From a virus (taxonomy: Duplodnaviria > Caudoviricetes): 64,000 nt of DNA. The translations under genes were made by a program, and so were the position numbers. The stretch's first letter is position 1. Each line of letters starts with the position of its first letter. The notes beneath the pieces are model-generated. The model saw only the letters and a list, made by a program, of their open reading frames with translations, searched no databases and was not told the origin of the DNA. The stretch is from the IMG/VR virus record IMGVR_UViG_3300032319_001025, positions 1 to 64,000 of that record. One strand, 5' to 3'. Positions 16,654 through 47,845 of the stretch are shown one piece after another.

Positions 16654-16681
16654 GCTTTTTTGTAAAAAAAGAATTTTAGCA

Positions 16682-16691: not shown

Positions 16692-16726
16692 TAATATGCA
16701 AGGTCTTTTTTAAAAAAGGTTAAAAA

Positions 16727-23348: not shown

Positions 23349-23363
23349 ATATTGGGGTGTTAT

Positions 23364-23771: not shown

Positions 23772-23783
23772 TAAGAGGATACA

Positions 23784-24665
23784 ATGCCAAAAGATTTAAA
23801 AAATGCCAAAAAGGGTACAGCGTCAGTTTTTCCTGATGGAGTATATGATGCTGCTAACGGTCAAGACAGAGTTGAGGCGTTCTTAACTCCAGAAGTTTTT
23901 GTTTCAAGGTTTCTATGGGGTATTCCTTTAGTATCTCCAATTACCAAACAAAAACTAACTGATAATGACATTAAAGACTATATTACTCGAGGGGCTAATC
24001 AGCTTGAGTTTGACGCTCAAGTAGAGATATTCCCAGTAACTAGAAGACATAGGCTTCCATTTGACCCTAACTTGTATTACCAATGGATTTATCTAGAAGT
24101 ACCCAATAAGCCTATTCAAAAAGTAGTAAGAGCGGCCATTTGTTCAGCTTCATATTTAGATACGGGGGCTGAGAATGAAAATTCAAAATATCCAAGCGGT
24201 GCTAATATTTACCAGTTGCCTAATGACTGGATTGAAATGGGGAATGCTAGACGCGGAATTTTAAACGTAATTCCTATCAACCCAGCTTTTACGGCCATCG
24301 GCACTGGCGATGCAGTAGGAGCTACTGGAGCTGCTATTTTGGCTTTTATTGGTCAAATGGGATGGGTACCTTCATACTGGACAGTAGAATGTGTTCATGG
24401 TTTTTGTTCGGAAGATGGTAAAGTCCCCCATATCGTAAACGAAGCTATTGGTATGGCCGCAGCAATCAAAGTATTAAGCAATTTGTACCCTTTATTTAGA
24501 GTTACGAGCCAATCTCTTTCTATTGACGGATTAGGGCAATCTAATACAGATCAATTGCAACAACTATTGCAAGCAAAAATTCAACAGCTTCAAACTGATT
24601 ATCAGAAAATCGTTAATAGAATTAAAGCTATGGTTAGCAATAAAATGTTTAGCTCTAACGTTTAA
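23784..24665 (+). CDS. Putative head-tail adaptor/neck protein
   Basis: FLWGIPL, SQSLSIDGLGQS and C-terminal coiled coil resemble large-myovirus adaptor proteins; position fits. Confidence 0.6.
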   Translation: MPKDLKNAKKGTASVFPDGVYDAANGQDRVEAFLTPEVFVSRFLWGIPLVSPITKQKLTDNDIKDYITRGANQLEFDAQVEIFPVTRRHRLPFDPNLYYQWIYLEVPNKPIQKVVRAAICSASYLDTGAENENSKYPSGANIYQLPNDWIEMGNARRGILNVIPINPAFTAIGTGDAVGATGAAILAFIGQMGWVPSYWTVECVHGFCSEDGKVPHIVNEAIGMAAAIKVLSNLYPLFRVTSQSLSIDGLGQSNTDQLQQLLQAKIQQLQTDYQKIVNRIKAMVSNKMFSSNV

Positions 24666-24669
24666 TTTT

Positions 24670-25206
24670 ATGGATGACAATTTTAAACATAGACTTAAAA
24701 ATTGGGTAGACAAAAGGGAGGCCCAAAATAGAGTGCGTATGAAAGATATTACGCATGTTGTAGATCCAGGCAGAATTATACCTAAAGAATCTAAAGAAGA
24801 AAAAGATCATAACTATTATGGTAAAAAAATTAGAGAATACGTTTTAAAACGATTGCAAGAAAACGTAGTTAATAAATCAGAAGAATTAGATAAAGGTGCA
24901 AAAGGCGATTGGCAAAAAGAAGGGTATACAATCCGTCATTTTAAAACACCTCACGGAGTAACCGTTGAAGCCTATAAAGATAACGAAAAAGTAGGATATT
25001 TAGAAGCAGCGCATTCACAAGCAGATAAAACAAAACTTTATCCAATTCAGACTGTCGTAGATTTTGATCATCAGCGTAAAGGTTTAGCTACAGCAATGTA
25101 CCAGCATGCTGAAAAAATAATGGAGAAACCGTTTAGACCAGGTTCTCAATCAAAAGAAGCAAGAGCGCTCTGGGGTCAAAAAAAACGACCATTTGGTAAG
25201 CCATAA
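24670..25206 (+). CDS. GNAT acetyltransferase with KSEELDKG linker
   Basis: Acetyl-CoA motif V..DHQRKGLATAMY. Confidence 0.75.
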   Translation: MDDNFKHRLKNWVDKREAQNRVRMKDITHVVDPGRIIPKESKEEKDHNYYGKKIREYVLKRLQENVVNKSEELDKGAKGDWQKEGYTIRHFKTPHGVTVEAYKDNEKVGYLEAAHSQADKTKLYPIQTVVDFDHQRKGLATAMYQHAEKIMEKPFRPGSQSKEARALWGQKKRPFGKP

Positions 25207-25214
25207 GAGTAAAA

Positions 25215-27554
25215 ATGAAAATTAGTAAGGACATGATTAAGAAAAAGAAGTTTGTAGGCACTACTGGTAAAGGTATGCCTATACTTTTAGTATAGACTCA
25301 CGGGGGTCTTTATGCATGTTTTGCTCAAAATGATAGGGGTGAAATCGAAACTTTGTCAGCAGCTCCGCATAAAGCTATAGCTCTATTTTTAGCAGAAAAA
25401 AAAGATAAAAATTTAAAATGGCGAGAAGAGCTAGATGAACTAGTTAAATCTAGAGAAGCTCAATTAAGTAAAAATTTAAAACAAAAAATGTTCGCCCCAT
25501 CTGTACTGATTAAAAGTGATACAGATTGCTATCTAGTTTATGATTTTGATGAAGATAGCGTAATTATAACCAAAACAGAAGATTTATTAGAGCTTTATAA
25601 AAACAGAGAAATTAAACCTTCTAGTTTAATTAGAAAATCAAATTTAAGCGAAGAGCCTGTTTTTGCAAGTGATTTTGATTTTAATGAGATTATTAAAAAA
25701 GAAGAAGATTTAAAAGCAATGTACGGCTCAAGTATTACACCAGAGCAAGAGCAGTTTGTAAATTGGGCTACTACCAAACTTCCAGGAAATAATAATTGGC
25801 AAAAATGGGCGGTTAAAAATCATATTAAAGATCCCAAACAATTTACTACTGAAGTAATGCAGCATTTGGAGCACTACGGACAATCAAAACATATACCTGA
25901 AGTATCACAAGTTAAATTTTTAAATCATGACATTAAGCAAGGTTTAGAAGCTTTTAGACAGGCGGAAGACCAATATAATGCTAAAGCTGCATCAAAGCCA
26001 CAATTAATCAAACCATCAAAAAAAACTACCAAAATAATGGATGTCGGAGATGGATATGCCTGGTTTAATTTAAATACCAATAAATGTGATGCAGAAAGTA
26101 AAGCTATGGGGCATTGCGGTACTGCTGCAAATGAAAATCAAACTCTTTTGTCGTTACGTAAAATTTTAAAGGTTGGGGATCAAACATATCACGAACCAGT
26201 CGTAACCGCCTCAATGGACCCAGATGGTAAAAGTTTAAGGCAGATTAAAGGCAGAGCAAATTTAATACCCCAGCCAAAATATCATAAATATATTAAAGAG
26301 TTACTAGCTCATACTAAGTTAACTCCAGAAGGCGGGGAATATTTACCTGGCAATGATTTCCATTTAGACGATTTATCTCATGAAGAGCACGATGATTTAT
26401 TAGCAAAAAGACCAGACCTTGCAGGTTATTCTAACAGAATAAAACCAGAATTGCAGTTAAAACATCAGATGGAATTAATCAAAGATCCTAAAAACCATAA
26501 AGACTTAGCATATAACCTAAACCTCCACCCAGAAGCACAAAAACAATTAGCTCAAAGCCGAGATATAAACGTACTTCGCAACCTAGCATATAACAAAAAT
26601 CTCCACCCAGAAGCACAAAAACAATTAGCTCAAAGCAAAGATAAATACGTACTTTGCAACCTAGCAGAAAACCTAAACCTCCACCCAGAAGCACAAAAAC
26701 AATTAGCTCAAAGCAAAGATGAATACGTACTTGGCAACCTAGCATATAACAAAAATCTCCACCCAGAACTACAAAATCAATTAGCTCAAAGCAAAGATGA
26801 ATACGTACTTCGCAACCTAGCAAAAAACCTAAACCTCCACCCAGAACTACAAAATCAATTAGCTCAAAGCAAAGATGAATACGTACTTGGCAACCTAGCA
26901 TATAACAAAAATCTCCACCCAGAACTACAAAATCAATTAGCTCAAAGCAAAGATGAATACGTACTTGGCAACCTAGCAGAAAACCTAAACCTCCACCCAG
27001 AACTACAAAATCAATTAGCTCAAAGCAAAGATGAATACGTACTTCGCAACCTAGCAGAAAACCTAAACCTCCACCCAGAAGCACAAAATCAATTAGCTCA
27101 AAGCAAAGATGAATACGTACTTCGCAACCTAGCAAAAAACCTAAACCTCCACCCAGAACTACAAAATCAATTAGCTCAAAGCAAAGATGAAAACGTACTT
27201 CGCAACCTAGCATATAACGAAAACCTCCACCCAGAACTACAAAATCAATTAGCTCAAAGCCAAGATAAATACGTACTTTGCAACCTAGCATATAACGAAA
27301 ACCTCCACCCAGAACTACAAAATCAATTAGCTCAAAGCAAAGATGAAAACGTACTTAGAAATCTCATAATAAATTTAAAAACAGATTCCAAAATCAAAAA
27401 AGAAGTAATTAAAAAACTGCAAGAGTTAAATCCAAAATTAGCAGAAGAAGCAATTGGCGAATTAAGACTAGAAAAACTTAAACTAGAAAGCGAAAATAAT
27501 CAAAAAGCTAGAAAAGTAAGAGTTGAAGAATATTTTGATAAGCTTAAAGAGTAA
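25215..27554 (+). CDS. Polyvalent protein: N-terminal domain, PcfJ-like domain and 26-aa LRV/HEAT-like repeats; in-frame TAG at 25293
   Basis: ATG 25215 is in frame with ORF 25353..27554 apart from one TAG. ESKAMGHCG..LSLR..QIKGRAN is PcfJ-like; 11 tandem repeats follow. Confidence 0.65.
26514..27371 (+). repeat. 11 x 78-bp coding tandem repeat
   Basis: Near-identical units encoding N[LKE]NLHPE[AL]Q[KN]QLAQSKDEYVL[RCG]NLA[YEK]. Confidence 0.95.
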
Positions 27555-27559
27555 TTTTT

Positions 27560-28480
27560 ATGGACAAGAACGGACCAAGAAATAGAAGAGGTAGAAAACC
27601 AATAGGAACCCAAGCACCTATTAATTTAAATGAGGTGCAAGTTTCTTTTGATAAAGAAGCCTTCATGCATGCCATTAAAACGCATGGGGTTTACTTTACC
27701 CATTACAGATCTTTACCAGATCCAACAGGCATGCAATCTAAAGGTGATAGCCATGCTGTAGGCAACGGAAATCTTAGATCAAATTCAGATGGTTTTATTT
27801 ACAATAAGGTTGGCGAATTTAGAGCACTTTTTATGCTAAATTCTAACTACGCTCAACAATATCCAGAAGGGCATATTAGCTTTGCCACAGCATATGTCAC
27901 TTTACCCGAATTTTATGAAGATTGTAAAGATGAGGCTATTATTCTAGCTCCATATGATAGGCTTTATTTAAAAGATATTGAAGCCAGAGTCGTTCACAGG
28001 CAGTACGTTGAAGCCACAACAGTTGGAGTTGATAAATTACAGTTCCCAGCTACCTGCGTTGAAGCCTTAGTTGATGCTAACGGCGTTTCTTATAAAGAAA
28101 ATATCGATTTCGCTATTACACCTGAAGGTCATATTAAATGGTTAACACAAAAAAGACCAGGCTGGAACACAACTGTAAACAGAGGTACTGTATATTCAAT
28201 AAGATATAGATATACCCCATTTTTCGTGGTAGCCAGAATTATACATGAAATTAGGGTAGCTAATGTAACAAGTTTCACTGATTTTACTAATGAATCCAGA
28301 AAGTTAGAACGCATGCCTTATCAGGTTCAGGTAGTCAGAGAAAACGTTTACTACGATACCAATTTAGACCCGCTCAAGCCTATACCTGTACCAGATAGGC
28401 TAGTTGAGCAGCCAATAGAAGGCGCATTAAATGAAATAAATCCAGGCGGTTCTTTAGGACCTAAAAACGGTTCTGATTAA
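27560..28480 (+). CDS. Putative head-closure/neck protein
   Basis: DGFIY, YDRLY and YSIRYRYTP motifs; position after the adaptor. Confidence 0.55.
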   Translation: MDKNGPRNRRGRKPIGTQAPINLNEVQVSFDKEAFMHAIKTHGVYFTHYRSLPDPTGMQSKGDSHAVGNGNLRSNSDGFIYNKVGEFRALFMLNSNYAQQYPEGHISFATAYVTLPEFYEDCKDEAIILAPYDRLYLKDIEARVVHRQYVEATTVGVDKLQFPATCVEALVDANGVSYKENIDFAITPEGHIKWLTQKRPGWNTTVNRGTVYSIRYRYTPFFVVARIIHEIRVANVTSFTDFTNESRKLERMPYQVQVVRENVYYDTNLDPLKPIPVPDRLVEQPIEGALNEINPGGSLGPKNGSD

Positions 28481-28490
28481 TCTTAATCTA
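28481..28490 (+). promoter_or_regulatory. Putative late promoter TCTTAATCTA
   Basis: Recurring motif upstream of 28510. Confidence 0.65.
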
Positions 28491-28509
28491 TTGTATAATA
28501 GAGGACATC

Positions 28510-28887
28510 ATGCTCAAAATTAGAGAAAAAGTAGCTCTAAAATTAAAAAGTTACGCTAAAGCTCTTGATATAGCATACAACGATGCTTCAGGAGCATTAA
28601 AAACAGTTCCATCGGGACATAAACTTTCAAATGGGGGCCAATCTTTAGCAGCTTCAGTTCCTTTTGATTATGGTCAAGTTTTAGCTATTTTTAATAATAG
28701 TAATGTAGTTGCTTTTGTAAAAACAGGACCCACAACAGCCGTTGCAGCCCCAACAGGTCCAACAAACGGAATTCCTGTTCCAGCATATAGCTGGTTATAT
28801 ATATCTTTAGGTGATGATTGTTTTGTCATTAGCAATAGTGCTAGCGTATTTGCTTATACGATAGATGATGATACATACGTCCAATAA
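28510..28887 (+). CDS. Small virion protein
   Basis: Late motif, GAGG RBS, beta-rich. Confidence 0.6.
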   Translation: MLKIREKVALKLKSYAKALDIAYNDASGALKTVPSGHKLSNGGQSLAASVPFDYGQVLAIFNNSNVVAFVKTGPTTAVAAPTGPTNGIPVPAYSWLYISLGDDCFVISNSASVFAYTIDDDTYVQ

Positions 28888-28895
28888 GGTGTAAC

Positions 28896-29843
28896 ATGGC
28901 TAAATATCCAAAAGAAAAAAAACAAAAAGAGATGGAAGAGGACAATAAAGTCCATGAATCCAAATCCCCTGAGCAAATCTTAAAAGAGCTTATTGACGCT
29001 TATGCCAAAGACAAGACCGTTAAAAAGCCAGTTCCGTCTATTTCTCAATTTGAACAAGGAAAATTTAGAAGAAAAACTCAGCCATATCAAGGCGAAAAAC
29101 CTGAAAAAGCTGAAAAGTCAGAACAAGTTCAAAAAAATATCGGCCTTCCATTGATGATGGACGAAAAAGCAGAAGACAAAAAATATCCTAAAAAGCTTGG
29201 TTCAAAAAACGTTGAAGCTCACATGAAGCGTTTGAAAGAAGAGCCAAGCAAATATCCAGGCGGCAAAAAACAAGCTATTGCTATTGGCCTATCTCAAGCC
29301 AGAGAAGGTACAAAAGAGCCAATGCCTAAAGCGAAGCTACCAAAAGCTGAAATAGAAAAAGCTGGCGAAATGCCTGCAGGTGCAGCAAAACCTAAAATGC
29401 CTAAGATGCCAAAAGCACCAGCAATGCCTTCTAAGCAGCCAATTGCTTCAGCTCAAAAACAAGCGCAAGCTTCTGCTAGTGGTAAACAAATGATGCCTAA
29501 GATGCCTAAATCAGCAGCACCTAAAAAGCAAGCTGCTCCATCTATGGCAACTAAATCAGACGAAAAAATTGCTAAAAATCAATTTGTTATTACTGAAGCA
29601 GAATTAAACAGCAAATGTACAGATTGCAATAAACCGCAATTTACTTTAACTAAAAATGAACATAAATTTACACCATGTATTTGTTACGCTTCAGAAAATC
29701 AAAGTAAAGAGCCTTTTGTTAAATTAATTAAAAGTGAAGGCAACACAAAGCTTTATTTTAATTCTAAAGCAGATCCAGAATCTGTTAAATCATTCTTACT
29801 TACACTTAAATTGGGACTTCTTGCGAAGAAGATCTCAAAATAA
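28896..29843 (+). CDS. Lys/Pro-rich putative internal head protein with C-terminal Cys domain
   Basis: KQAIAIGLSQAR motif, PKMPK repeats, KAE/KSE/KSD linkers, CTDC...CIC. Confidence 0.6.
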   Translation: MAKYPKEKKQKEMEEDNKVHESKSPEQILKELIDAYAKDKTVKKPVPSISQFEQGKFRRKTQPYQGEKPEKAEKSEQVQKNIGLPLMMDEKAEDKKYPKKLGSKNVEAHMKRLKEEPSKYPGGKKQAIAIGLSQAREGTKEPMPKAKLPKAEIEKAGEMPAGAAKPKMPKMPKAPAMPSKQPIASAQKQAQASASGKQMMPKMPKSAAPKKQAAPSMATKSDEKIAKNQFVITEAELNSKCTDCNKPQFTLTKNEHKFTPCICYASENQSKEPFVKLIKSEGNTKLYFNSKADPESVKSFLLTLKLGLLAKKISK

Positions 29844-29854
29844 AGAGATCTTTT

Positions 29855-31135
29855 ATGGTTTGGATAGTTATAAATGCTACCAATATCAGTGAGTCTTTAA
29901 ACAGACTTATTGATAGAGGAAATTTTAAAGATGCCCAAACCGTTAAGTACTACCTAGACAACTTCCTTAAAAAACTAAAAAGCCTGTGCCAAACTCATGG
30001 CGGAAGTGTTCACTTGTCTCTTTACGAGAGAGTCGTACTAGAAGTTTCGGTAAATGCAGCAGAACAAATTCCAAATATTATAGAAAATTATATGCCTAAT
30101 TTGAAAAGCAAAATGGGCATTGGAATAGGTATGAGTTTTGAGGAAGCTAATGAAGCAGCTCAAAAATCTTTACATACTAAAGAAATTGAAATGTATGAAA
30201 GCAAAAAAGAAGCTTCTGAATACATTAAAAGTGAACTATTAAAAGATGATGATATTGAACCAATTAGGCCAGCAGTGGATATGCCGCCAAACGTTTTTGA
30301 TCCAGAACTTCCAGATAGCAAAAACGTTACAAGAATAGTTCCAGAAAAAAGACCCATTCAAGAAGGTCAATATAGGCTTAATCAAGTTAAACCAACTAAA
30401 CCAAAATTAGCGCCAAATATTAAAGAGCAAGAACAAGGTCAAAAAACTTTAATAGATAACGTTTTAGACGAATTACTTTTTCCAAAAGAGCAAATTCAAC
30501 AGCAAGCACAATTAATGCAACAAAAAGCTCAACAGCAAATGGCTATGCAGCAGCAAATGCAAGCTCAACAAGAAAAAGAGCAGGCAACACAGCATTTACA
30601 AAATGTGCCAAAACAGCAAGAAACTGAAAAAGACGAACTAGAAGGTACGCCAGTAATACACTACGAAGACGAATCAGAAAAAGATCAAAGTTTACATAAA
30701 GAAGGCGAATCAGAAGATATCGAAAGTTCACATGAAGAAGATGAACACGATAAAGTTTCATTAAAGCTTTTAAACTTTTTAGGGCAGTTAAAAGAACAAA
30801 TGCCCGATTTAATGCAATTACATGCATCGAACCCAGAAGCTTTTAAGCAAGTAATGTCTTTAATTAATAAAATGCTTAAGCTATCTAAACACAAAATTAA
30901 AAAAAGTGACATTTCTTTAGCTGAAGAATTAGAAAAGAATTTTAAAAATTTAAAACATGCAAAAAAAATCAAGCAAGCTAAAGGAACCAGATTGCCAATT
31001 GGTACTTTAAAAGGAAGAAAAATTAAAGTAATGGTTAATGATAAACCAGTTTGGCGACAAGTAGCTTCTGGTATTGTTTCAGACAGTAAAGGTGTTCCAA
31101 TTTCTGTTAAATCTAGAAACTTAGATACAGAATAA
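29855..31135 (+). CDS. Protein with N-terminal catalytically degenerate mCpol/GGDEF-like domain
   Basis: Residues 1-115 align by eye with the mCpol domain of 40350..41783, with DGD changed to NAT and GGDD to LYER. Confidence 0.6.
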   Translation: MVWIVINATNISESLNRLIDRGNFKDAQTVKYYLDNFLKKLKSLCQTHGGSVHLSLYERVVLEVSVNAAEQIPNIIENYMPNLKSKMGIGIGMSFEEANEAAQKSLHTKEIEMYESKKEASEYIKSELLKDDDIEPIRPAVDMPPNVFDPELPDSKNVTRIVPEKRPIQEGQYRLNQVKPTKPKLAPNIKEQEQGQKTLIDNVLDELLFPKEQIQQQAQLMQQKAQQQMAMQQQMQAQQEKEQATQHLQNVPKQQETEKDELEGTPVIHYEDESEKDQSLHKEGESEDIESSHEEDEHDKVSLKLLNFLGQLKEQMPDLMQLHASNPEAFKQVMSLINKMLKLSKHKIKKSDISLAEELEKNFKNLKHAKKIKQAKGTRLPIGTLKGRKIKVMVNDKPVWRQVASGIVSDSKGVPISVKSRNLDTE

Positions 31136-31136
31136 T

Positions 31137-31991
31137 ATGCGTTTTAAACTTGAACATGACCTAACCGACCTAGCTTCAAAAGTATCATCAGATATAGATA
31201 GATTAAAAGCACGTGCTGATGAAGAATCTAAAACTATTGCCGCTCAAGTAAGAGCTTTTATTATAGGTAAAGCTTTAAATGAATTAAATTCATTTCAGCA
31301 ACAGGCTTATCTTGGAAAAGATCATGAAAACGTTAAAATGAGTAGACTTGGCGACGGAATCTATTTAATAGAGCTAGACAATAAAGCTCTCGAGATAGAA
31401 AACGGCTCACCTAAAAAGTTCATGCGCTGGCTTATTGATAAGAATCCCAAAGCTAAAACTGCTAAAGACGGCAGCAGGTATGCGCATATACCATTTTCTC
31501 AAAATGGACCTGGCAAAAAAGGTGCAACTTCAAAAGTAAACGATCCAAGGGCAGCTTTTTTTGACATTGTTAATAAAACATTAAAAGATCAAAACATTGA
31601 TTTAAAAAAAATAGAAACAAATTCTGATGGTACACCCAAACTAGGTGTTTTGCATAAAGTTGATATGTCAAGCTTTATAGCAGGTGACAAAAATAGGTCT
31701 AATTTTTCTATGCCAAGAAGTCAAGAAATGGCCGCTAAGATTGGATTGCAGCCCCACACTGGAATACATAAGCTCCAAGGATTAGTTGTTACGCAAAGAA
31801 TGGGCAAAGACGGTAAAGTAGTTAAAGAAGCGATGACTTTTAGGACTATTTCTACAAAGCATGAAGCTGAAGGAAGATGGTATTACCCAGAACAGAAGCC
31901 TTTAAACGCATTTCCAGCAGCCTATGATTTTGCCAAAACTCTAATGGATGAGGCAATTAGGCGGTTAAATCAAGAATTTGGCGGTAGATAA
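31137..31991 (+). CDS. Putative neck/tail-completion protein
   Basis: KTAKDGSRYAHIPF and MTFRTIS...WYYP motifs; position fits. Confidence 0.55.
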   Translation: MRFKLEHDLTDLASKVSSDIDRLKARADEESKTIAAQVRAFIIGKALNELNSFQQQAYLGKDHENVKMSRLGDGIYLIELDNKALEIENGSPKKFMRWLIDKNPKAKTAKDGSRYAHIPFSQNGPGKKGATSKVNDPRAAFFDIVNKTLKDQNIDLKKIETNSDGTPKLGVLHKVDMSSFIAGDKNRSNFSMPRSQEMAAKIGLQPHTGIHKLQGLVVTQRMGKDGKVVKEAMTFRTISTKHEAEGRWYYPEQKPLNAFPAAYDFAKTLMDEAIRRLNQEFGGR

Positions 31992-31995
31992 TTAG

Positions 31996-32005
31996 TCTTA
32001 ATCTA
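31996..32005 (+). promoter_or_regulatory. Putative late promoter TCTTAATCTA
   Basis: Six nt upstream of ATG 32012. Confidence 0.6.
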
Positions 32006-32011
32006 TTAGGT

Positions 32012-32974
32012 ATGGCCATTATACCTACAGACATACTCGTTAAAACAGCACTAGAAGCTGGTTTAAATGACCTTAGAAAGAATAATTTCATTTTAGATGA
32101 CGTAATAGCTGGACTAGCTACAGATACGCTGTCTAAAACCGAATACGGCTACAAAGAGATTCATGCCTATAAGCAATGGTTTTTAAACAATAAAATACCA
32201 GTTTATTTAGATTTTAGGGTAGATTCGCCCGAAATGCCATGTATTACAATAACAAGCTCACCCAGAGCTGAATTAATACCTAGAACTTCATTAGGTGATA
32301 CTTTAGGCGGTCCAGAAGACATAAGCACTGAAAAAGTCTCAATAAATCCTATCAAAGTGTATGAAAATTTTACACCGTTTGAATATGATAAAACTACTGG
32401 TAAGGTTACTTTTCCAAGTGGCATAACTACAGAATATGCAGTAGTAGGTCAATTTTTAGTTTCATCTAGAACTGGAAAAGCTTATCAAATACTTGAAATT
32501 ATTGATAATTCTACTTTTAAAATTAAAGCAAACGTGAACGAAGATTTTACTGATGCTTATGTAGTTCCGCCAGTATCTGTATGGAATTTACAAAGAGAAG
32601 TAACATTTGTATCTGAAACTGTTTATATTGGAGTTCATACTCAGTCAGATCCTGTACAAAATCAATGGCTTCACGATACTATTTGGTATATACTTTTAAG
32701 ATGTAAAGAAGTTTATTTTGAAGGAAGAGGATTTGAATTAAGTACCATGCAATCAGATGCCATGTATTTAAATCCAAATTTTAAAGAAACTGATCGTATT
32801 TTTAGTAGAAACATAACTCTTTCTGGACAGATTGAAATTAATTTTATTAAATATGCAGCACCAAAATTACAAGACGTTCGTGGTGTCATTAGAATTGCAG
32901 ATGGTCCTAAAACTCCACCAGGTGTAAATCCTAAAGATTATTCACCTACCTGGAAAATGGAACAAGACGATTAA
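32012..32974 (+). CDS. Putative tail terminator/completion protein
   Basis: PCITI and IFSRNITLSG motifs; precedes the sheath in neck gene order. Confidence 0.55.
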   Translation: MAIIPTDILVKTALEAGLNDLRKNNFILDDVIAGLATDTLSKTEYGYKEIHAYKQWFLNNKIPVYLDFRVDSPEMPCITITSSPRAELIPRTSLGDTLGGPEDISTEKVSINPIKVYENFTPFEYDKTTGKVTFPSGITTEYAVVGQFLVSSRTGKAYQILEIIDNSTFKIKANVNEDFTDAYVVPPVSVWNLQREVTFVSETVYIGVHTQSDPVQNQWLHDTIWYILLRCKEVYFEGRGFELSTMQSDAMYLNPNFKETDRIFSRNITLSGQIEINFIKYAAPKLQDVRGVIRIADGPKTPPGVNPKDYSPTWKMEQDD

Positions 32975-32984
32975 TGGTTTTAAA

Positions 32985-35582: not shown

Positions 35583-35590
35583 GTTTTTTT

Positions 35591-39292: not shown

Positions 39293-40353
39293 AAAATTTG
39301 ATTAAACAGCCGCATTTGATTTTTTCAATGGAAAATCCTAGATATCAGGTAACCCAAAAAGATATAAATCATGGACAAGCTTTAAATATGCTTAAAGATT
39401 TAGGCGAGAATACTATTGATTCTAATGGAAAATATGGATCGGAAGAGCCATCAATTATAGTTTCTAACCCTAAAAACGTTAAAGATATAATCAAGCTTGC
39501 TAGAGATGCTGGACAAGAATCTATTATTTACTCAGATGGAAAAAGACATAAAATGATATATTTAAACGGTCCCCAAGCTGGACAAACGGTTAATGGGGAA
39601 GGTACGGTTTTCTACAATCAGAAACCAAATGATAACTACACACATTTTAAAGATCAAAACGGTAAAGATATTTATTTTACTCATAATTTTGATTTTGGTA
39701 AATCAGAGAAATTGCAAAAAACTTCTAAAATTAATTTGAATCCAGAACATGGGAAAATTATCGCAAATGCATACGAAAAAATGAAACATGATCCAAATGA
39801 TCCTAAAGTTAAAGAGGCGTATGGTGCGCTAATTAATGAAACAAAAAAACAATTTAAAGATATGTTAAATTCTGGGTTTAAATTTTCTAAAATTAAACCC
39901 GAACAGTCCAATCCATATGGCACATCAAAAGATGTACATGAAGATATAGAAAAAAATAAACATTTATGGTTTTTTCCAACAGAACAGGGATTTGGTCAAG
40001 AGGGACAAACTAAAAATCATCCAATGCTAGAATCAACTGAATTTCAATTTGAAGGTAAACCTTTATTAGCTAATGATCTGTTTAGAATAGTTCACGATTA
40101 TCGCGGTCATTATTTAGGAGGTAAAAGCTCGTTCGGACCTAAAGGAGAGCATCAAGCTTATCTTACACATAAAAAAGATTTTAGCCCTTTAGCTCAAAAA
40201 GCTTTGGCTACAGAAACTATGGGTCAAAATAATTGGGTAAATTTTGGACCATATGGAGAAAAAAACAGAAAAAACCCCGAAAACACTACATACGCAGAAC
40301 AAAAATCGGGGCTTCTTCCTGACGAAATAATAAATGGGAGATGGCACGAATGA
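39289..40353 (+). CDS. Two-domain protein: SAM-lyase/DUF3293-like plus putative metal-binding domain
   Basis: GKYGSEEPS...AGQESII; linker FGKSEKLQKT; NDLFRIVHDYRGH..GE..H..ETMGQN. Confidence 0.55.
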   Translation: MKNLIKQPHLIFSMENPRYQVTQKDINHGQALNMLKDLGENTIDSNGKYGSEEPSIIVSNPKNVKDIIKLARDAGQESIIYSDGKRHKMIYLNGPQAGQTVNGEGTVFYNQKPNDNYTHFKDQNGKDIYFTHNFDFGKSEKLQKTSKINLNPEHGKIIANAYEKMKHDPNDPKVKEAYGALINETKKQFKDMLNSGFKFSKIKPEQSNPYGTSKDVHEDIEKNKHLWFFPTEQGFGQEGQTKNHPMLESTEFQFEGKPLLANDLFRIVHDYRGHYLGGKSSFGPKGEHQAYLTHKKDFSPLAQKALATETMGQNNWVNFGPYGEKNRKNPENTTYAEQKSGLLPDEIINGRWHE

Positions 40354-41783
40354 ATCATAAACATTACAGAAGGATACTGCTCGACTCTTTTGATGAAAAT
40401 TCTTTGCAAAAAGGTTCAAAAGGCGATTGGCAAAAAGAAGGGTACAAAATACATCATGTTGGAGATCCTAAAAGTAGTTTTGACGTTATTGCAGTTTCCC
40501 CAAAAGGAGAAACCATCGGTAAGGTAAATATTGGAAGATACGAAACAAAAACAAAACCAAATCTAGTGGCTTCTAACCCAATTGTACATAAAGATCACAG
40601 ACGTAAAGGTATCGCATCTGCTATGTATCAATATGCAGAAAAAGTATCTGGTGGAGTAATGAAACCAGATGTAGGATTAACTTTATCGGCAAAACAAATG
40701 TGGGCTAAACCAAATAGACCTTTTGGCGGTAAACGTAAATATTTTCAACATTTAATATCTAAATCAGAATTAAAGAAGGCACCATTTATTCATGAACACA
40801 ATGCTTTTGCAGCAAGTAATATAGGTCCTTATATCGGAGAAGATTCAGAATTAGAATCTGTTACCAATCATAAAGGTTACAAGGTTTATAAATATAAAGA
40901 CGGCGATTATCATTATTTTGCTATACATAAAGATAACGATCCCAAAAAAGAAGTACTTTCATCAGCTACCGTATCTTCTTATTACGATCCTGAAGATCCA
41001 AATTTTGACGAAAATGAAGGGTTGCCTTATATTGAACATGCAGCAACGTTATCAGAACACCAAGGTAAAGGCATGGGAACAGCCATTCATGAGGCTGCAA
41101 CAAAACATTTTGGAACATTATTAAGCAGTACCGCGCTTTCTCCAGGAAGCGACGCAACTTGGAAAAAGATGCGTGCAAATAAAAACATAAAATTAAAAAT
41201 TGGAAGAGGTGAATCAAGTCCCTATATAGCTAAATGGATTAAAAAGCCCAAAATTAACAAAACAGAAGATTTAAATCAACTAGCTAAAGGTTTTGAAGAA
41301 TTATTTGGTTTTTTGGCTAAAGCAAAAAAGAATATTATATATATAGCTACCGATGGAGATAATATCGGTGCTTCAGTTGAAAGGGCCGCTCTATCTAACG
41401 ATATTAAAGAAATTAAAAAACAAGATAAAATTATTAAAAGAGGTAATCAAACCGTAAGAAAGTGGATTAAAAAACGCAAAGGTTCAATTTATATTGACGG
41501 TGGCGATGATATTTCTTTTACTATTCATAAAAAATATTTAGATGAAATCGAAGAACTAAGGAATAAATATCATGAGGCTACTGGATATACAATCACAGTT
41601 GGAATAGGTGATAGTATATCAGAAGCCGCTCATGCCATGGTTTATGGTAAATTAAAAGGCAAAAACCAAGTAAATAGATGGACATCAGAAATAGAATCTA
41701 TTATTTCTCAGCATGATAAAAAACCTGAATCCGCAGAAGAAAAATATCAAAAAGAAGGTCTTTTGGTTCCCAAAAAGATATAA
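40350..41783 (+). CDS. Polyvalent protein: GNAT, GNAT and mCpol (GGDD) cyclase-like domain
   Basis: HRRKGIASAMY; HQGKGMGTAIH; YIATDGDNIG...IDGGDD...TVGIG...GKNQV. ATGA overlap with the previous gene. Confidence 0.8.
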   Translation: MNHKHYRRILLDSFDENSLQKGSKGDWQKEGYKIHHVGDPKSSFDVIAVSPKGETIGKVNIGRYETKTKPNLVASNPIVHKDHRRKGIASAMYQYAEKVSGGVMKPDVGLTLSAKQMWAKPNRPFGGKRKYFQHLISKSELKKAPFIHEHNAFAASNIGPYIGEDSELESVTNHKGYKVYKYKDGDYHYFAIHKDNDPKKEVLSSATVSSYYDPEDPNFDENEGLPYIEHAATLSEHQGKGMGTAIHEAATKHFGTLLSSTALSPGSDATWKKMRANKNIKLKIGRGESSPYIAKWIKKPKINKTEDLNQLAKGFEELFGFLAKAKKNIIYIATDGDNIGASVERAALSNDIKEIKKQDKIIKRGNQTVRKWIKKRKGSIYIDGGDDISFTIHKKYLDEIEELRNKYHEATGYTITVGIGDSISEAAHAMVYGKLKGKNQVNRWTSEIESIISQHDKKPESAEEKYQKEGLLVPKKI

Positions 41784-41823
41784 CTAATTAAATATATTCA
41801 ATTATTTGCGTCTTTTTGTTATG

Positions 41824-41833
41824 ACTTAATCTT
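41824..41833 (+). promoter_or_regulatory. Putative late promoter ACTTAATCTT
   Basis: Recurring motif upstream of 41867. Confidence 0.7.
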
Positions 41834-41866
41834 TTAAGTAGGCATTATTAAAAGAGTTTTAATAAA

Positions 41867-43018
41867 ATGGCAAAACTAACAAAAACAGATTATTTTGATG
41901 CTTTGTGGAATTTGTATCAAGAAAACAAAAAAAAGGCATCTATGCCACCACACGTTGGCGGCGAAGAACAGAAATATGTTGTTCATGTTGGTGGTCAAGC
42001 AATAACCGAACCCAAAACATACAAGCAAATTATTCAAGACCATGGCGACATTAAAAGATTAGAAGCATCTGGAGCAAGAGTTCTCCCCCATGTGCCAAAA
42101 ACAACACCAAAACCGCCACCATTGCCTAAACAAACAAAGACAATGGGCAAAAACCAAGATATTAAAATACCTAAAAAAGAATTTATTAAAGAGCACAAGC
42201 GCTTAATTGATGTTCTCGAGTCTCCTTCCCATAAAGATGACGTACAGGAAGCTAAAAAACAAAGAAAAGAATTAAAAGAAATCAACAAATCAGATAAATA
42301 CTTTCAAAATTTAAAAAAGGGCTACGCACAAAAAAAACTTCCAGTAGATCCAAATAAAGAATCTCAAATGAATGCCATGTTAATAGATAAATGGCAAAAT
42401 GAACAATATACGCCAACTAGAGCATTAATTAAACCATTAACTGGAAATTTAAGGCAAAGAGCGTTAAATAGACTAGCTGGTACAACAAAAGTCAGAAAAG
42501 CAAAAGACGGCAAAAGAGAGTTTTTATTGTATCGAGGTGTTAGCGATTCTGAAAAAGATAGCGCATTAGATAACAACGTTTTAAATTATCCAGAAAACCA
42601 ATACACTTCATGGACACCACATCAGGGAATAGCTGGTAGATTTGCAAATAGCAGAATGGGTCATATTATTGGCGCATGGATTCATGAAAATGATATACAA
42701 CATTACCCTAAAATGGTTGGAAATGTATATGAAAGGCATAAAGGAAAGCCTATTAAATCCGCAAATGATTATGCTGGAGAAGATGAAATTATAGTTAGAC
42801 ATACTAGACCGCATGAAGGGCACGTAACGCATTCATTTTCTACGGATTCAAATTTTATAAAATATAACACTAAAAGTCCGATTAAAAACGAAATTAAACC
42901 AGAAAGATTGGTTGCATCAGAAGAAAAAAAGAACAACGAAGACTTCTTAAAAGAAGAAATATTGGATTTTTCCGATGAAGAAACCCTAGAGCACTCTACT
43001 AACAAGTGGAGTAAATAA
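41867..43018 (+). CDS. ADP-ribosyltransferase-like protein
   Basis: LYRGVS, YTSWT and EDEIIV (R-S-E triad); paralogous to the ART domain of 32985..35582. Confidence 0.7.
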   Translation: MAKLTKTDYFDALWNLYQENKKKASMPPHVGGEEQKYVVHVGGQAITEPKTYKQIIQDHGDIKRLEASGARVLPHVPKTTPKPPPLPKQTKTMGKNQDIKIPKKEFIKEHKRLIDVLESPSHKDDVQEAKKQRKELKEINKSDKYFQNLKKGYAQKKLPVDPNKESQMNAMLIDKWQNEQYTPTRALIKPLTGNLRQRALNRLAGTTKVRKAKDGKREFLLYRGVSDSEKDSALDNNVLNYPENQYTSWTPHQGIAGRFANSRMGHIIGAWIHENDIQHYPKMVGNVYERHKGKPIKSANDYAGEDEIIVRHTRPHEGHVTHSFSTDSNFIKYNTKSPIKNEIKPERLVASEEKKNNEDFLKEEILDFSDEETLEHSTNKWSK

Positions 43019-45774
43019 TGCCTGTTTTAACTCCAGAACAACACGAAAAGGAAATGCACTTAGCAGCTAGTTCTGGCGACTGGGATAAAGCTATAAAACA
43101 CGCAAAATCCCAACCTAAAAATTGGTCGGCTTTTGATAAATTACCCCAATATGAAATCCCCCCAGAAGCTTTTGAAAAAGTAATTAATTCGGTTCCAAAA
43201 AATGATAGGGCTAATTTTTATTTTGAGCTTGCAAGCAACCTTCATCCAAATTTAACTCATGATCAATTAGATTTTTTAGGCAGCAAAACTGGAAATGACA
43301 TTTACGCACAAGATTCAATAAAAAACCACCCTAATTGGAATCCTAAAGAATCAAAGAAAAATTTAGGTGAAAAGTCAGCATCTGATTTTTGGTTAAGCTA
43401 CGAAAGAAGAGTAGAGCCGCATCATTTTGCTACAATTAAGTCTATATTTTCTGGCAAACCAGAAGAAATAACAGATCATAGAGGTAAAACTGGAAACAGC
43501 CATTTAGGAAGTATTCAGAATGGAAGGCTATACGAAAAAGAAAGTAATATAGCCGCAAACGGACCTAAATTTTATGGCGATCAATTTTTATCAAACCTTA
43601 AAGACGTACATCCATATTTATTAGATCATGCAAAAAAAGTTCAAGACGCTATAATGCAGGATGAAAATATAGAAAAAAGAATTATAAACGGAAAACCTCA
43701 CATTAAACTTTATAGAGGTGTTGGAGGGTCTTACGCTAAAAGAATAGCAAAATCTTCAAAATATGATCCAAAAAATCATTCAGTTGAAAACAAAAAGTTT
43801 AAAATAAAATCAGCCCCCTTTAGTTCATGGTCTACTGAAAAAGAAGTAGCGGATAATTTTGCTAAATCCAGAACTAACATTACTGGAACTATAGGTCCAG
43901 CAAAACCAGGAGAATCTATAACACTATCTTCGTGGATTCCAGTAGAAAACATTTTACATTCGGGCTTTCATAGAATTCATACAGGTCAAGAACATGCACA
44001 TCCACATGAATCAGAAATAATAGTATCTCATCCAACAGGATACATGAATTTAAATTCAAAAGATTTACACCTCGTTAATACACTTAAAGACCCCTATTCA
44101 AGCGAAATTGAAAAAGTTTCAACAAGAGGCATTATCCCACAAAAACTGGCTGCATCAGAAAAAGAATATTTTAATGATTTGTTAGAAAAAAACCTCAGAT
44201 CTAAAATTGCTGCAGCAGCTCTAGGAGCATCTTTATTATCTACGCCAGCAAACATAAAAGAAATAAAACGACCATTAAATCAAATTCAAGAAAAACAAAC
44301 TCAATTACATCCAGATTTAGTTGATATTTCAGCAATTGAGAGTAATTACGGAAAAAACAAACAACATAAAAAAGTTTTAACTGGCGTTAACATGGGACAT
44401 AAAGCCGCTGGAGCTACTGGCTTAATGCCATTAACCATTAAAGAAACTATTAAAAGAAATAAAAACTTATCCGATAGATACCCACAAACCATTTCAATGG
44501 ATCACGATCAGTTAACTGATTTTATTAATAAAAACCCAAACATTGAAAACAAAATAGCTAATGCACATTATAAAAAACTTTTAAAGGTTTTTAGTAATAA
44601 CAAAAATAAAGCGATTTTTGCCTGGAGGAACGGCATTTCCGCAGCCAAAAACGCTTCACAAGAAGAAATAAATAACAATCCCTATGTAATAGCAGTAAAT
44701 AAAGCAAAAATAAACATAAATAAATCAGATAAATACTTTAAAAGTCTTAAAAAAACAAATACTAAGATTAATCAACCAAATAAAATAAATAAAAAATTTA
44801 TAGCTGTTATTAATAAAGGCACGTTATCAGATGGAAAATATAATCCTTCCCCTTTATATTATGTGGGCGATGGCAATCACATGACAGAACCATATAAAGC
44901 TATGGCTTTTGATTCAATAGAGCAAGGTAGAAAAGAAATTGAAAATTCTTGGAAAAAAAGATCTCAAAATGAAGAATATAAAAGAACGGCACCACATCCT
45001 TTTGACATTAGCTTTATAGAAGATCCAAGGCCAGGAAAATGGAACGAAGATGAAAGTTATTATGAAGATGAAAGCGGTAATCCAATTTTAGACAGTAAAG
45101 GCAATGTCATACACGCAAAAATGCCAAAACTAGAATTTAACGAACCTAATTCTATTATGGTGCATGTGGAAGACCCTTCAGATCAAAAAGAGCTAAAGCA
45201 AAAACAAAAATTAGCTTCAAGCTTAAAAAGCCAGGGCAAAAAAGTAGATTTAGTATATCCCAAAATGCCAGAACAAAAGGTAAAAATACAATCATACAAA
45301 GAAGCAATGAAAGAAATAGCAGAGCAGGAAGCAAAACAAAAATTAAAAGATTACGGATATGATGATGAAGGAGTAAAACAAGCTATTCAAACATCAGGAG
45401 AAAAAACAAACGTTATTCCAGAAAAATTAGCAGCATCTGAGCTTTATTTTAAAAATCTTAAAAAATCAAATGAAAACAAACAATTATTAAATAAATGGAA
45501 AAAATATTTTAAATCAAAAATCAAAAAAACTGACGGCATTACAACTACTACAATGCCAAGAGGACAAAGCCCTGGTCAAACAGGCCCATCATTAAATGGA
45601 ACATCAATTAAAGAACAGCCCAGAGGCCCGATTGGAACAATTAGGCCGTCAAAGGATTTACAGCAGATTTCACAGTCTTTTACGGGCAATTTGGGACAAC
45701 CTGGTATATCAGCAGCTGCATCAAATCTTAGAAGATTTTTGGGTAAATCTAAAGGTTTAAATAAAAAACAATAA
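43018..45774 (+). CDS. Polyvalent protein: ART-like and SLT lytic transglycosylase domains
   Basis: LYRGV/FSSWS/ESEIIV; ISAIESNYG, GATGLMPLT, AWRNG and YV. Confidence 0.75.
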   Translation: MPVLTPEQHEKEMHLAASSGDWDKAIKHAKSQPKNWSAFDKLPQYEIPPEAFEKVINSVPKNDRANFYFELASNLHPNLTHDQLDFLGSKTGNDIYAQDSIKNHPNWNPKESKKNLGEKSASDFWLSYERRVEPHHFATIKSIFSGKPEEITDHRGKTGNSHLGSIQNGRLYEKESNIAANGPKFYGDQFLSNLKDVHPYLLDHAKKVQDAIMQDENIEKRIINGKPHIKLYRGVGGSYAKRIAKSSKYDPKNHSVENKKFKIKSAPFSSWSTEKEVADNFAKSRTNITGTIGPAKPGESITLSSWIPVENILHSGFHRIHTGQEHAHPHESEIIVSHPTGYMNLNSKDLHLVNTLKDPYSSEIEKVSTRGIIPQKLAASEKEYFNDLLEKNLRSKIAAAALGASLLSTPANIKEIKRPLNQIQEKQTQLHPDLVDISAIESNYGKNKQHKKVLTGVNMGHKAAGATGLMPLTIKETIKRNKNLSDRYPQTISMDHDQLTDFINKNPNIENKIANAHYKKLLKVFSNNKNKAIFAWRNGISAAKNASQEEINNNPYVIAVNKAKININKSDKYFKSLKKTNTKINQPNKINKKFIAVINKGTLSDGKYNPSPLYYVGDGNHMTEPYKAMAFDSIEQGRKEIENSWKKRSQNEEYKRTAPHPFDISFIEDPRPGKWNEDESYYEDESGNPILDSKGNVIHAKMPKLEFNEPNSIMVHVEDPSDQKELKQKQKLASSLKSQGKKVDLVYPKMPEQKVKIQSYKEAMKEIAEQEAKQKLKDYGYDDEGVKQAIQTSGEKTNVIPEKLAASELYFKNLKKSNENKQLLNKWKKYFKSKIKKTDGITTTTMPRGQSPGQTGPSLNGTSIKEQPRGPIGTIRPSKDLQQISQSFTGNLGQPGISAAASNLRRFLGKSKGLNKKQ

Positions 45775-45836
45775 TAAAATATATAACTAGTTGAATTAAT
45801 TAAATAAAATTAATCAAAAAAGCATTATTTTATATT

Positions 45837-45846
45837 ACTTAATCTA
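45837..45846 (+). promoter_or_regulatory. Putative late promoter ACTTAATCTA
   Basis: Recurring motif upstream of 45863. Confidence 0.7.
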
Positions 45847-45862
45847 TCAAATAGAGGTAATT

Positions 45863-47845
45863 ATGTCTAAGTCCTTATTAGAACAGGCTCAGGAATTATT
45901 AAAAAGCATTGAAAACAATCCAGAAGCATTAAAAGCTTTTCAAGAGCTTGTAAAAGCACGCGCAGAAGAATCAAAGCACATTGAAATGGAAATGTCACCA
46001 GACCAAGAAAAGAAAAAACGCATTGATGAATTGTCCAAAAAAATTAAAGCTTGCATGGAAAAAATGCAAAAAGAATCAATGGATAAAGACGACAAGCCAC
46101 ATTTACCAGGAACTCCAGAAGATAAAGCTCATGATGTTGTCGAAGAAGGCGAAAGTGTTAAAGAAGCCATTCACGGATTAAAAGATAAAAGTGAAGATTC
46201 TAAAAAAGAAATGCTTTCACATTTAAGATCTTTAAAAGATAAATCCCAGCTTAGAAGCCCAGAAAACAGGGAAGCTGGTAAAGAACCTCATGAAAAAGCT
46301 GAAACTGGACACGAAAAAGGTGTTCATCAAGCAGATTACAGCACAACTTATATAAAAGATAATAAAATTCAGCACGGTATTTCAACTGCTGGAATTAGAG
46401 CAAGAGAAGCCTCTAAACCCCGTTCTTTTAAAGAATATGAAGAATCACCTAAAGCAGCAAAGGCGGGTCACGAAAGAGTATTAGAAGAAATTAAACAACA
46501 GCCTAAACCCAACCTTCCTAAAACTGAAAAAGCTGAAACAGAAAAATCTGTACACGGAGTTCCAGGAAAAAATAGGCCGTTACATTCACGTGGCATACAC
46601 GAAACTGTAAGTCAAAGCAGCTCAGAGTTTGGCGGCGAAGCAAAAGAAAAAAGCCTTGCTGGATTAAAAGTAAGACGTGGAGATACTGCAGGAGCAAAGA
46701 AGGCACATAAAGAAATTGTTTCCGAGCAGAAAAAAATGCCTGTTGCAAAATTACCAAAAGCTGAAACAGAAAAAAATGAAACTTATTACAGAAATTTAGT
46801 TAAAAATACTTTAGAAAAACAACTAATGTCTCCACCGTTCGGAATGAGCGAAATGGAAAAAGAAGAAGACCCAAGAGAAATGGTTGAATCAAGTTTAATG
46901 GCAATTCACAGAAAAGCTAATTATTTGCAAAAATTGCTTCATGAAGTTTGCGAATGTAAAGAAGTGCCAGCTTGGGTTCAAGATAAGCTTTCTTCTGCTA
47001 AAACGCATATGACCGATGTAATGGATTTTATTGCATCTCAAGCAGGAAAAGGTAGTCATCATGAAGAGCAAGAAATGCACCCAGCCGAAACTGCAGAAAT
47101 TGTAGTAACTAAATCTGAATTAGAAAAAGCCAAAATTGACGAAGGTAAACAACTAGGAAGCAAAATAGCAGCAAGACAAGAAAGAAATATTAGGGACGTA
47201 ATTACAACTAAAACCCCTTCTGGACAAAAAACAAGGACAGCAAGATCTTCTGCAAGAAGAGAAAAAGAACTAGAAGAAGGTAAAAAGCCAGAATCTCTCT
47301 TATCTGCTTTAAAAGAGCATGCGGAAAGAAGGAAAGGCGAAAAAATTGTAGGAAAACCTAAAACACTAGAAAATATTAGCGGTAGAGACATTAGAGGCAA
47401 GTCTGCTGAACAAAGAGCTGGCGTACACATGCATTCTGGTTCAATGGCAGGTAAAGAAATGCCAATTGGAGTTTCTGCACCAGTTTTTGCAGATAAAAAA
47501 GGTAAAGCTTATCCTATTGGTGGATTATTCGGTGAAAATAAATATTCTTCTAAAGTTAGACATGAAGAAGTAATGGAAGGCTTAAAAAACATTAAGCCAA
47601 GTTTACCTAAGTCCGAAATGAAAAAAGAACAGCTCGAGCCAGCTCCGAAACCACAAAGCAAACCTAAAATGATTGCACCGCCTGCTAGTGGTGCTGGTGC
47701 AAGCGATGGGGGTCATGGCAACTGGAAAGGCGACGGAAAAGGCCCGAAAATGAAAAAACCAGTAAAATTTAACTATAAAATTGCAAAAGCTGAAAAAGTA
47801 CAATATTATTCAAATTTAGTTAAATCTTTATTAGATAAAAAGTAA
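45863..47845 (+). CDS. Lys/Glu-rich putative internal head or scaffold-like protein
   Basis: Many K-[A/S/T/N]-E motifs, three GVH...H..V.....LPK[TAS]E repeats and a PAWVQDKL motif. Confidence 0.65.
   Translation: MSKSLLEQAQELLKSIENNPEALKAFQELVKARAEESKHIEMEMSPDQEKKKRIDELSKKIKACMEKMQKESMDKDDKPHLPGTPEDKAHDVVEEGESVKEAIHGLKDKSEDSKKEMLSHLRSLKDKSQLRSPENREAGKEPHEKAETGHEKGVHQADYSTTYIKDNKIQHGISTAGIRAREASKPRSFKEYEESPKAAKAGHERVLEEIKQQPKPNLPKTEKAETEKSVHGVPGKNRPLHSRGIHETVSQSSSEFGGEAKEKSLAGLKVRRGDTAGAKKAHKEIVSEQKKMPVAKLPKAETEKNETYYRNLVKNTLEKQLMSPPFGMSEMEKEEDPREMVESSLMAIHRKANYLQKLLHEVCECKEVPAWVQDKLSSAKTHMTDVMDFIASQAGKGSHHEEQEMHPAETAEIVVTKSELEKAKIDEGKQLGSKIAARQERNIRDVITTKTPSGQKTRTARSSARREKELEEGKKPESLLSALKEHAERRKGEKIVGKPKTLENISGRDIRGKSAEQRAGVHMHSGSMAGKEMPIGVSAPVFADKKGKAYPIGGLFGENKYSSKVRHEEVMEGLKNIKPSLPKSEMKKEQLEPAPKPQSKPKMIAPPASGAGASDGGHGNWKGDGKGPKMKKPVKFNYKIAKAEKVQYYSNLVKSLLDKK

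Follow-up and report, generated by a model that had tools for sequence, protein, structure and literature searches.

A short joint motif shared by candidate head-cargo polyproteins, scaffold and capsid protease in an uncultured relative of Myxococcus phage Mx1

Polyvalent proteins are multi-enzyme late proteins that have been predicted to be delivered together with the DNA and to be processed, mainly by metallopeptidase (MPTase) domains, and rare members carry a C-terminal assemblin-like peptidase (Iyer et al. 2017, PMC5512222). Here we analyse a block of comparable genes in the first 64 kb (64,000 nucleotides, hereafter the window) of the 144,013-bp virus record IMGVR_UViG_3300032319_001025, a genome with direct terminal repeats at its ends. 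Positions 24670-47845 of the window are filled by fifteen plus-strand open reading frames (ORFs) with the tail sheath gene (48150-50960) immediately downstream, an arrangement that agrees with an initial annotation in which the block was read as a set of virion-packaged effector polyproteins. The sheath shares 37.5% identity with its counterpart in Myxococcus phage Mx1, the sole named relative, and judged by its sequence the phage is an uncultured, distant relative of Mx1. We assign a probability of about 0.65 to a reading in which the effector ORFs encode head-loaded precursors that would be cut by the capsid protease, at a short conserved joint, into injected single-domain enzymes.

Herpesvirus assemblin cuts between the Ala and Ser of V/L-x-A-S, and the T4 prohead protease gp21 cuts after the Glu of L/I-x-E. 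In T4, the proteins IPI-III and Alt are processed by gp21 (PMC9026906), while ejection or inner-body proteins of phiKZ and SPN3US are cut by gp175 and gp245 after the Glu of A-x-E (PMC10052503) and the HK97 gp4 protease cuts the capsid protein at K103/S104 (PMC10275583). What is new in the locus described here is that the ideas of the polyvalent protein and of the capsid-protease substrate are combined, through an explicit joint that is common to cargo, scaffold and protease.

Like polyvalent proteins, the polypeptides of this block join unrelated conflict-type enzymes (ART, GNAT, Nudix, lysozyme/SLT, peptidase) in one late protein, undergo heavy domain shuffling and occupy a late or virion gene neighbourhood, here among Mx1-conserved structural genes directly upstream of the sheath gene. 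At least two distinct conflict-type enzyme domains occur in one polypeptide in polyprotein M (40341-41783; GNAT-GNAT-mCpol) and in polyprotein J (32985-35582; Nudix, an ART-like module, a HExxH segment and a phrog_7499 domain). A difference from polyvalent proteins is the explicit short joint seen here at almost all borders between modules; scaffold and protease tail have it as well, which favours the capsid protease over an MPTase. In the fusions found here the assemblin-fold protease is N-terminal, whereas it is C-terminal in those reported (PMC5512222), the ART-like modules of J, N (41867-43018) and O (43018-45774) have no match to the ART-PolyVal model, and no window protein has a Pfam match to either MPTase or ART-PolyVal.

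A conserved joint in candidate cargo, scaffold and protease

The conserved joint is PHI-x-[K/A]-[S/A/T]-E, where PHI is a hydrophobic residue, together with weaker K-N-E and K-S-D variants. It was derived independently of the initial annotation, from tripeptide statistics in 71 related IMG/VR loci with GC contents of 0.30-0.70. An alignment of the window-phage and Mx1 capsid proteins was needed to recover these loci, because a search with the single protein encoded at 32012-32974 gave one close relative only. Tripeptides were ranked by z-score, since a ranking by ratio, which we dropped, was swamped by conserved positions of rare residues. KSE was seen 172 times against 15.8 expected in scaffold homologues, where it ranks first among all tripeptides, and 199 times against 70.2 in unassigned ORFs, where it ranks second of 6282; the corresponding counts are 63 against 18.7 in protease homologues and 43 against 13.0 in effector-like ORFs. 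Capsid proteins have 0 occurrences against 4.5 expected, and the other ORFs matching known proteins of the window phage, capsid protein included, have 32 against 32.2. Across the same loci there is no enrichment for the permutations KES, SKE, SEK, EKS and ESK, nor for RSE, QSE and KSQ, and KSD and KAE are mildly enriched.

Position -2 is occupied by L, M, I, V or F in 79% of 450 unique sites, and the working form of the motif was chosen because scaffolds repeat LAKSE (37), LAKAE (32) and LAASE (11). The scaffold, portal and polyproteins of Mx1 bear joints of the LAKSE/LAKAE type as well. All ten K-[STN]-[ED] instances listed in the initial annotation exist, and each has a hydrophobic residue two positions before the Lys, a regularity that had gone unnoted. 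The SLQKG and FLAKA instances of the same list have to be given up, along with the L-x-K-[GA] half that they represent: PHI-x-K-G was seen 334 times against 368 expected in the family, and this half follows only about 10% of [KA]SE sites. It is kept at the N-terminus of ART-first ORFs that lack KSE and therefore belongs mostly to the modules themselves, chiefly as the start of GNAT and ART modules.

Within the window phage, strict motif counts were set against 500 composition-preserving shuffles. Effector ORFs contain 20 sites (shuffle mean 5.0 +/- 2.3, reached by 0/500 shuffles) and the protease-to-scaffold group contains seven (1.3 expected, reached by 1/500), so the motif exceeds what composition predicts. 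Non-structural proteins stand at 13 sites against 13.6 (reached by 299/500), and the tail, fibre and baseplate proteins, the sheath included, are depleted (3 against 8.7, reached by 498/500), in keeping with the original impression that the motif is sparse in fibres, sheath and tube. Its occurrence elsewhere in the genome follows the prediction only in part. The protease has two sites 13 residues apart, directly past the catalytic domain, the scaffold-like protein has four, and a single KSE occurs in the portal tail; there is none in the major capsid protein or in the 63 homologues inspected. The capsid N-terminus carries a conserved related motif, L-[MV]-K-[AT]-L-E-A-G, which is found also in the C-terminal part of the protease.

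Joints at module borders and exchange between phages

Strict sites never fall inside Pfam or PHROG domain matches and always lie in the gaps between matches or past the last one. FGKSE, for example, sits between residues 24-120 and 157-317 of ORF L (39289-40353), and MGKNE and FNKTE flank the phrog_7499 domain (residues 742-821) of J. The modules of J recur in nineteen database homologues in a wide variety of orders, and the junctions carry KLAASE or PHI-x-K-[SA]-E. Homology breakpoints lie within 12 residues of a strict site in 55 of 224 cases (16 expected) and of a loose site in 91 of 224 (28.9 expected), with p-values that are only indicative because the endpoints are not statistically independent. 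They cluster at residues ~150, ~384, ~465 and ~725-745 of J, at 1080-1096 of ORF K (35591-39292; eleven breakpoints), at 121-149 and 287-311 of M, at 139-150 of N and at 430-437 and 539-562 of O. The placement of the motif at domain boundaries, as originally claimed, is borne out by these breakpoints and by the crossovers of a sister phage.

That sister phage (L007) has structural proteins 81-93% identical to those of the window phage, but its cargo block has been rearranged and has roughly half the length. Nine of the 13 breakpoints between the two blocks lie within seven residues of a site (p 1.2e-7), and two crossovers fall within the motif itself: one, between Lys and Ser of ...FDFGKSE..., links the SAM-lyase-like module straight to mCpol, and the other, between Lys and Thr of ...DDLSKTE..., links the tail of J to the C-terminal domain of K. 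Although their flanks are unrelated, ORF B (24868-24893) and J (33426-33451) have joints that are identical over ~24 nucleotides; for the joints of N and O the identity extends over 18 nucleotides. The ~24 nucleotides common to B and J hint that the joint is a recombination point too.

Crossovers exactly within the motif and the identical nucleotides at these joints would also be expected if the motif were never cut and served as a conserved flexible joint, or as DNA microhomology for cassette exchange, in proteins that act full length as ordinary polyvalent proteins. However, the motif is encoded with both serine codon families over the whole GC range of 0.30-0.70, and selection therefore acts on the peptide and not on the DNA; it recurs four to eight times in scaffolds, which are not modular; and it is depleted in tail proteins and absent from capsid proteins. 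Recombination and cleavage at the joint can moreover coexist, and we regard an uncut joint as unlikely. A tentative extension of the cleavage reading, which we hold at somewhat less than even odds, is that the joint is both the cut site of the capsid protease and a preferred crossover point via short DNA identity, such that any enzyme cassette could be transferred from one cargo ORF to another, or to the protease gene, without losing its loading and release. Such a dual role would amount to a natural plug-and-play capsid-loading system, fast-evolving even between sister phages with structural proteins ~90% identical.

The capsid protease and a possible route into the head

The head module lies at the opposite end of the genome, outside the window, and comprises, in the gene order read from PHROGs matches, the terminase (genome 131223-133076), the portal (134829-136892), a MuF-like protein, the capsid protease (137774-138676; L003:13774-14676), an acidic scaffold-like protein (139614-140561) and the capsid protein (140564-141973; L003:16564-17973). 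The MuF-like protein, also of interest for the comparison with polyvalent proteins, is here a separate gene beside the portal gene. The N-terminal 175 residues of the protease were modelled with AlphaFold2 (AF2) at a predicted local distance difference test score (pLDDT) of 90.7 and adopt an assemblin fold, with pseudorabies pUL26N (4v07) as the best Foldseek match (E 6.7e-4, prob 1.0) and T4 gp21 (5jbl) among the matches listed. Residues H40 and S118 are invariant in 33 protease sequences, and the gene lies between the portal and scaffold/capsid genes. The fold search alone identified the protein, as nothing was found when PDB was searched with the single sequence or a profile; on the predicted structure, it is an assemblin-fold serine prohead protease.

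Most protease homologues have a joint at residue ~170-200, right past the protease domain, and in relatives long C-terminal extensions place enzyme modules beyond it. The fused modules include a GNAT (L040), the C-terminal phrog_3170 domain of ORF L, partner of the SAM-lyase-like module (L021), a GGDEF domain (L053) and a PI3/PI4-kinase-like domain (L056 and L034). In L008, whose capsid protein is 95% identical, the GNAT module of ORF B is inserted exactly between the two joints of the protease linker. Since a capsid protease does its work within the procapsid, no other indirect evidence speaks as strongly as these fusions for the entry of the modules into the head interior. With a joint common to cargo, scaffold and capsid-protease tail, it is probable that the modules are taken into the head, separated by cleavage and injected. 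The C-terminal part of the protease also repeats the N-terminal capsid protein motif K-T-L-x-A-G-x-x-N-A-A-P-S-x-L-x-x-G-S-A-L-x-x-E-D, which may be a mimic that docks the protease in the shell.

In the proposed mechanism, precursors from the ORFs at 24670-47845, and probably also from 55768-56490, would enter the procapsid and be cut at the joints by the assemblin-fold protease, whose C-terminal part carries the same joints, as do the scaffold-like protein and the portal tail. Single-domain enzymes would be released, stay in the head and exit with the DNA, among them GNATs, Nudix, ART-like domains, mCpol, the SAM-lyase-like and SLT-like domains and the small HExxH domain. We infer proteolysis, the choice of the cut bond, packaging, ejection and a host-takeover or anti-defence role from sequence. 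Head loading and protease cutting thus retain the outline first suggested for this block, given the resemblance of the joints to capsid-protease sites and the modules fused to the protease in relatives, and cutting at K-G is dropped from it. A cut between the [K/A] and the Ser of L-A-[K/A]-S-E would fit the HK97 and herpesvirus rules and may also cover the L-[MV]-K-[AT] N-terminus of the capsid protein. The near-absolute Glu suggests instead a cut after Glu, as in T4 and SPN3US.

Comparison with these systems sharpens the picture. In T4, as would be the case here, the prohead takes up enzymes, an ADP-ribosyltransferase among them, which an assemblin-fold protease trims at a short Glu-ending motif before they are injected; T4 trims one short N-terminal targeting peptide from each single-domain protein, whereas the sites here lie between domains and no common N-terminal tag is apparent. 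phiKZ and SPN3US likewise have one tripeptide-type motif in many head-internal proteins, in the portal and in the protease, with a protease that loses a C-terminal propeptide and with propeptides that are multi-site, but their cuts remove long N-terminal propeptides and are not reported to split enzymatic modules, and the motif differs. The assemblin fold is shared with HK97 and herpesviruses, where a hydrophobic P3 and a Lys or Ala before Ser would fit cuts before the Ser of L-A-K-S-E and L-A-A-S-E, but the substrates there are scaffold and capsid proteins only and the strict Glu after Ser has no counterpart.

A second enzyme that could do the cutting is encoded within the block. The HExxH (zincin-like) domain of J might process the polyproteins in cis or trans, either within the virion or once injected, with the capsid protease uninvolved. 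The HExxH motif named in the initial annotation is indeed there, and H-E-x-x-H and a downstream Glu-Glu are invariant in ten homologous segments; the same role has been proposed for the metallopeptidase domains of polyvalent proteins (PMC5512222). Yet the segment has no Pfam peptidase family match, and in the phage family as a whole the joint reaches its highest density in scaffolds and protease tails, the classic substrates of a capsid protease. The effector modules are, furthermore, fused to the assemblin-fold protease itself. Two proteases would be compatible with each other, and we consider processing by the HExxH domain without the capsid protease improbable.

The position of the genes bears on a further alternative, in which the products are late cytoplasmic or tail-associated proteins that never enter the head and any processing is due to another protease, for instance the ClpP-like gene product at 2717-3511. 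The cargo genes are interleaved with neck and tail genes, and this second protease, with its lipoprotein-type signal, is encoded in the window. Against this stand the motif shared with scaffold and capsid-protease tail, the fusion of modules to the capsid protease in relatives and the exported appearance of the ClpP-like protein, and we judge the alternative very unlikely.

Several observations nevertheless weigh against cutting by the capsid protease inside the head. The cargo genes sit amid neck and tail genes, outside the head module, and the effector ORFs have dissimilar N-termini without a common N-terminal capsid-targeting peptide; only the products of 45863-47845 and 55768-56490 have their N-terminal ~30 residues in common. 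A general targeting tag Y-[FY]-x-x-L-x-K was considered and rejected, as it follows 1/13 sites in the capsid-flanking regions of relatives; the window-phage genome contains eight copies against 2.4 expected, all but one in cargo-like ORFs. The capsid protein lacks KSE in all 63 homologues, and several sites of the window phage are KNE or KSD variants, for which family-wide enrichment is mild or nil. The HExxH domain could instead be the processing enzyme. The homology breakpoints are not independent of one another, the ORFs of the relatives were called by a simple longest-ORF rule, and what has been published on Mx1 is limited to a genome announcement (PMC10720576).

Should the joints be cut, the Mx1-like group, which is widespread and almost unstudied and is represented here by 71 IMG/VR contigs, would deliver single-domain enzymes as an exchangeable set, using a polyprotein strategy that is elsewhere characteristic of RNA viruses. 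Mx1 itself can be grown in the laboratory on a strain of Myxococcus xanthus. The joint would then provide a sequence rule to predict head-cargo phage proteins and possibly a handle for loading chosen proteins into capsids. The ART-like, GNAT, Nudix, mCpol and SAM-lyase-like modules would be candidate injected anti-defence enzymes.

Module content of the block and neighbouring genes

All genes in this section are on the plus strand unless stated otherwise. Among the enzyme domains first listed for the block, three GNATs, the Nudix and the mCpol exceed Pfam cut-offs, the SAM-lyase and SLT assignments are weak, and PcfJ was lost: it has no profile match at E <= 0.1 in any ORF of the block or at E <= 1 in ten re-searched segments. 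Pfam searches of polyprotein segments cut at the joints gave no match for the ART-like, HExxH, K C-terminal and C N-terminal segments.

ORF B (24670-25206) has a 69-residue leader, the joint VNKSE (24868-24882) and a GNAT (Pfam Acetyltransf_1, residues 79-153, E 2.8e-7). ORF C (25353-27554) has an N-terminal domain with the joint ITKTE (25566-25580) followed by ~13 tandem 26-residue repeats; it has no family match, and C-like segments are found within the Nudix/ART polyproteins of two relatives (P0004 and P0005). The repeats are of the NLHPE-Q-QLAQSKD-YVL-NLA type, and the sister phage has at least two to three tandem C-like gene copies. Interleaved with the cargo genes are two conserved virion structural genes (27560-28887; phrog_1004), which are syntenic with Mx1 and contain no joints, and the structural genes H and I (31137-32974; phrog_16819 and phrog_1000), syntenic with Mx1 h9 and h11. 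The structural genes within 23352-32974 are syntenic with Mx1 genes located between the Mx1 capsid and sheath genes. ORFs F and G (28896-31135) are rich in Lys, Glu and Pro, carry the joints LPKAE, LIKSE, VNAAE and YIKSE and are homologous to Mx1 h5 and h8. The N-terminus of G is mCpol-like, in that the corresponding end of Mx1 h8 resembles the mCpol of 40341-41783; G itself has a weak GCH_III match only.

Polyprotein J consists of a Nudix domain (Pfam NUDIX, residues 11-123, E 1.1e-16), ISKSE, the ART-like module, LAATE, a part without assignment with the HExxH domain, MGKNE, the phrog_7499 domain, FNKTE and a tail, with joints at 33426-33440, 34128-34142, 35169-35183 and 35445-35459. ORF K has a 1085-residue part without assignment, IRKNE (38840-38854) and a 147-residue ART-PolyVal-like domain; this domain resembles ART-PolyVal clusters by ESM-Atlas features only (score 0.94). 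The SAM-lyase-like module of ORF L (residues 24-120) resembles PF23780 at 22.4 bits, below the cut-off of 28 (E 1.3e-4), and is followed by FGKSE (39694-39708) and the phrog_3170 domain (residues 157-317). Polyprotein M contains two GNATs, each a Pfam match, separated by ISKSE (40755-40769) and followed by INKTE (41253-41267) and mCpol, a nucleotide cyclase module (PF18182, residues 334-445, 70.1 bits against a cut-off of 26.4, E 2.7e-19).

ORF N consists of a leader, INKSD, an ART-like module, LVASE and a tail and is paralogous to residues 124-389 of J. Polyprotein O has an N-terminal part without assignment with an ART-like module, LAASE, an SLT-like domain, INKSD, a further part without assignment, LAASE and a tail; the SLT match is weak (E 0.0027), and the region is homologous to the SLT part of a 1479-residue Mx1 protein. 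The three R-S-E ART-like modules of J, N and O hold up as far as their residues are concerned, R94, S117 and E187 being invariant in 17 homologues. They have no Pfam match, and the structures that match the AF2 model (pLDDT 77.6) all belong to the ART superfamily, though the scores are weak (Foldseek E >= 0.024; VIA Z <= 5.2). ART-PolyVal was rejected as their family because its model maps to other segments of the homologues (P0011 and P0017). ORF P (45863-47845) is charged and of low complexity, has five strict joints (LPKTE, LPKAE, VTKSE, LPKSE and IAKAE) and has no family match in Pfam or PHROG searches. Downstream of the sheath gene, 55768-56490 is probably a further cargo ORF by its sequence features, with one joint (VTKAE) and, besides the shared N-terminus, a C-terminal YY-x-NLVKS tag in common with P. 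The tail of its product resembles the C-terminus of the capsid protease of a relative (L026).

The portal gene of L008 (L008:2713-6057) has a ~430-residue insertion past residue 426 that ends in ...VHNS, where the portal sequence picks up again. The insertion resembles an intein that includes a homing-endonuclease part, and it is absent in the window phage. The minus-strand gene at 2717-3511 encodes a ClpP-family protease (Pfam CLP_protease, E 2.7e-14) whose N-terminus bears a lipoprotein-type signal (...LLLSAC...) and which is distinct from the capsid protease. The fibre and spike genes (8000-20200) have a GC content of 0.37-0.46, against 0.30-0.36 elsewhere, a contrast suggestive of a host-recognition module that was acquired separately. 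Immediately downstream of the sheath gene, an HNH/homing endonuclease gene (51053-52480; phrog_3339, E 4.8e-72) has homologues near the capsid gene in 23 related loci, positions that suggest a mobile gene. Between the sheath and tube genes, 52832-53305 encodes a small protein with a lipoprotein-type signal and a metzincin-like zinc motif (HELGHxxGLHH), without a PHROG match, and 54883-55716 encodes a DnaJ-type J-domain protein (...YRELAKKYHPDVNP...).

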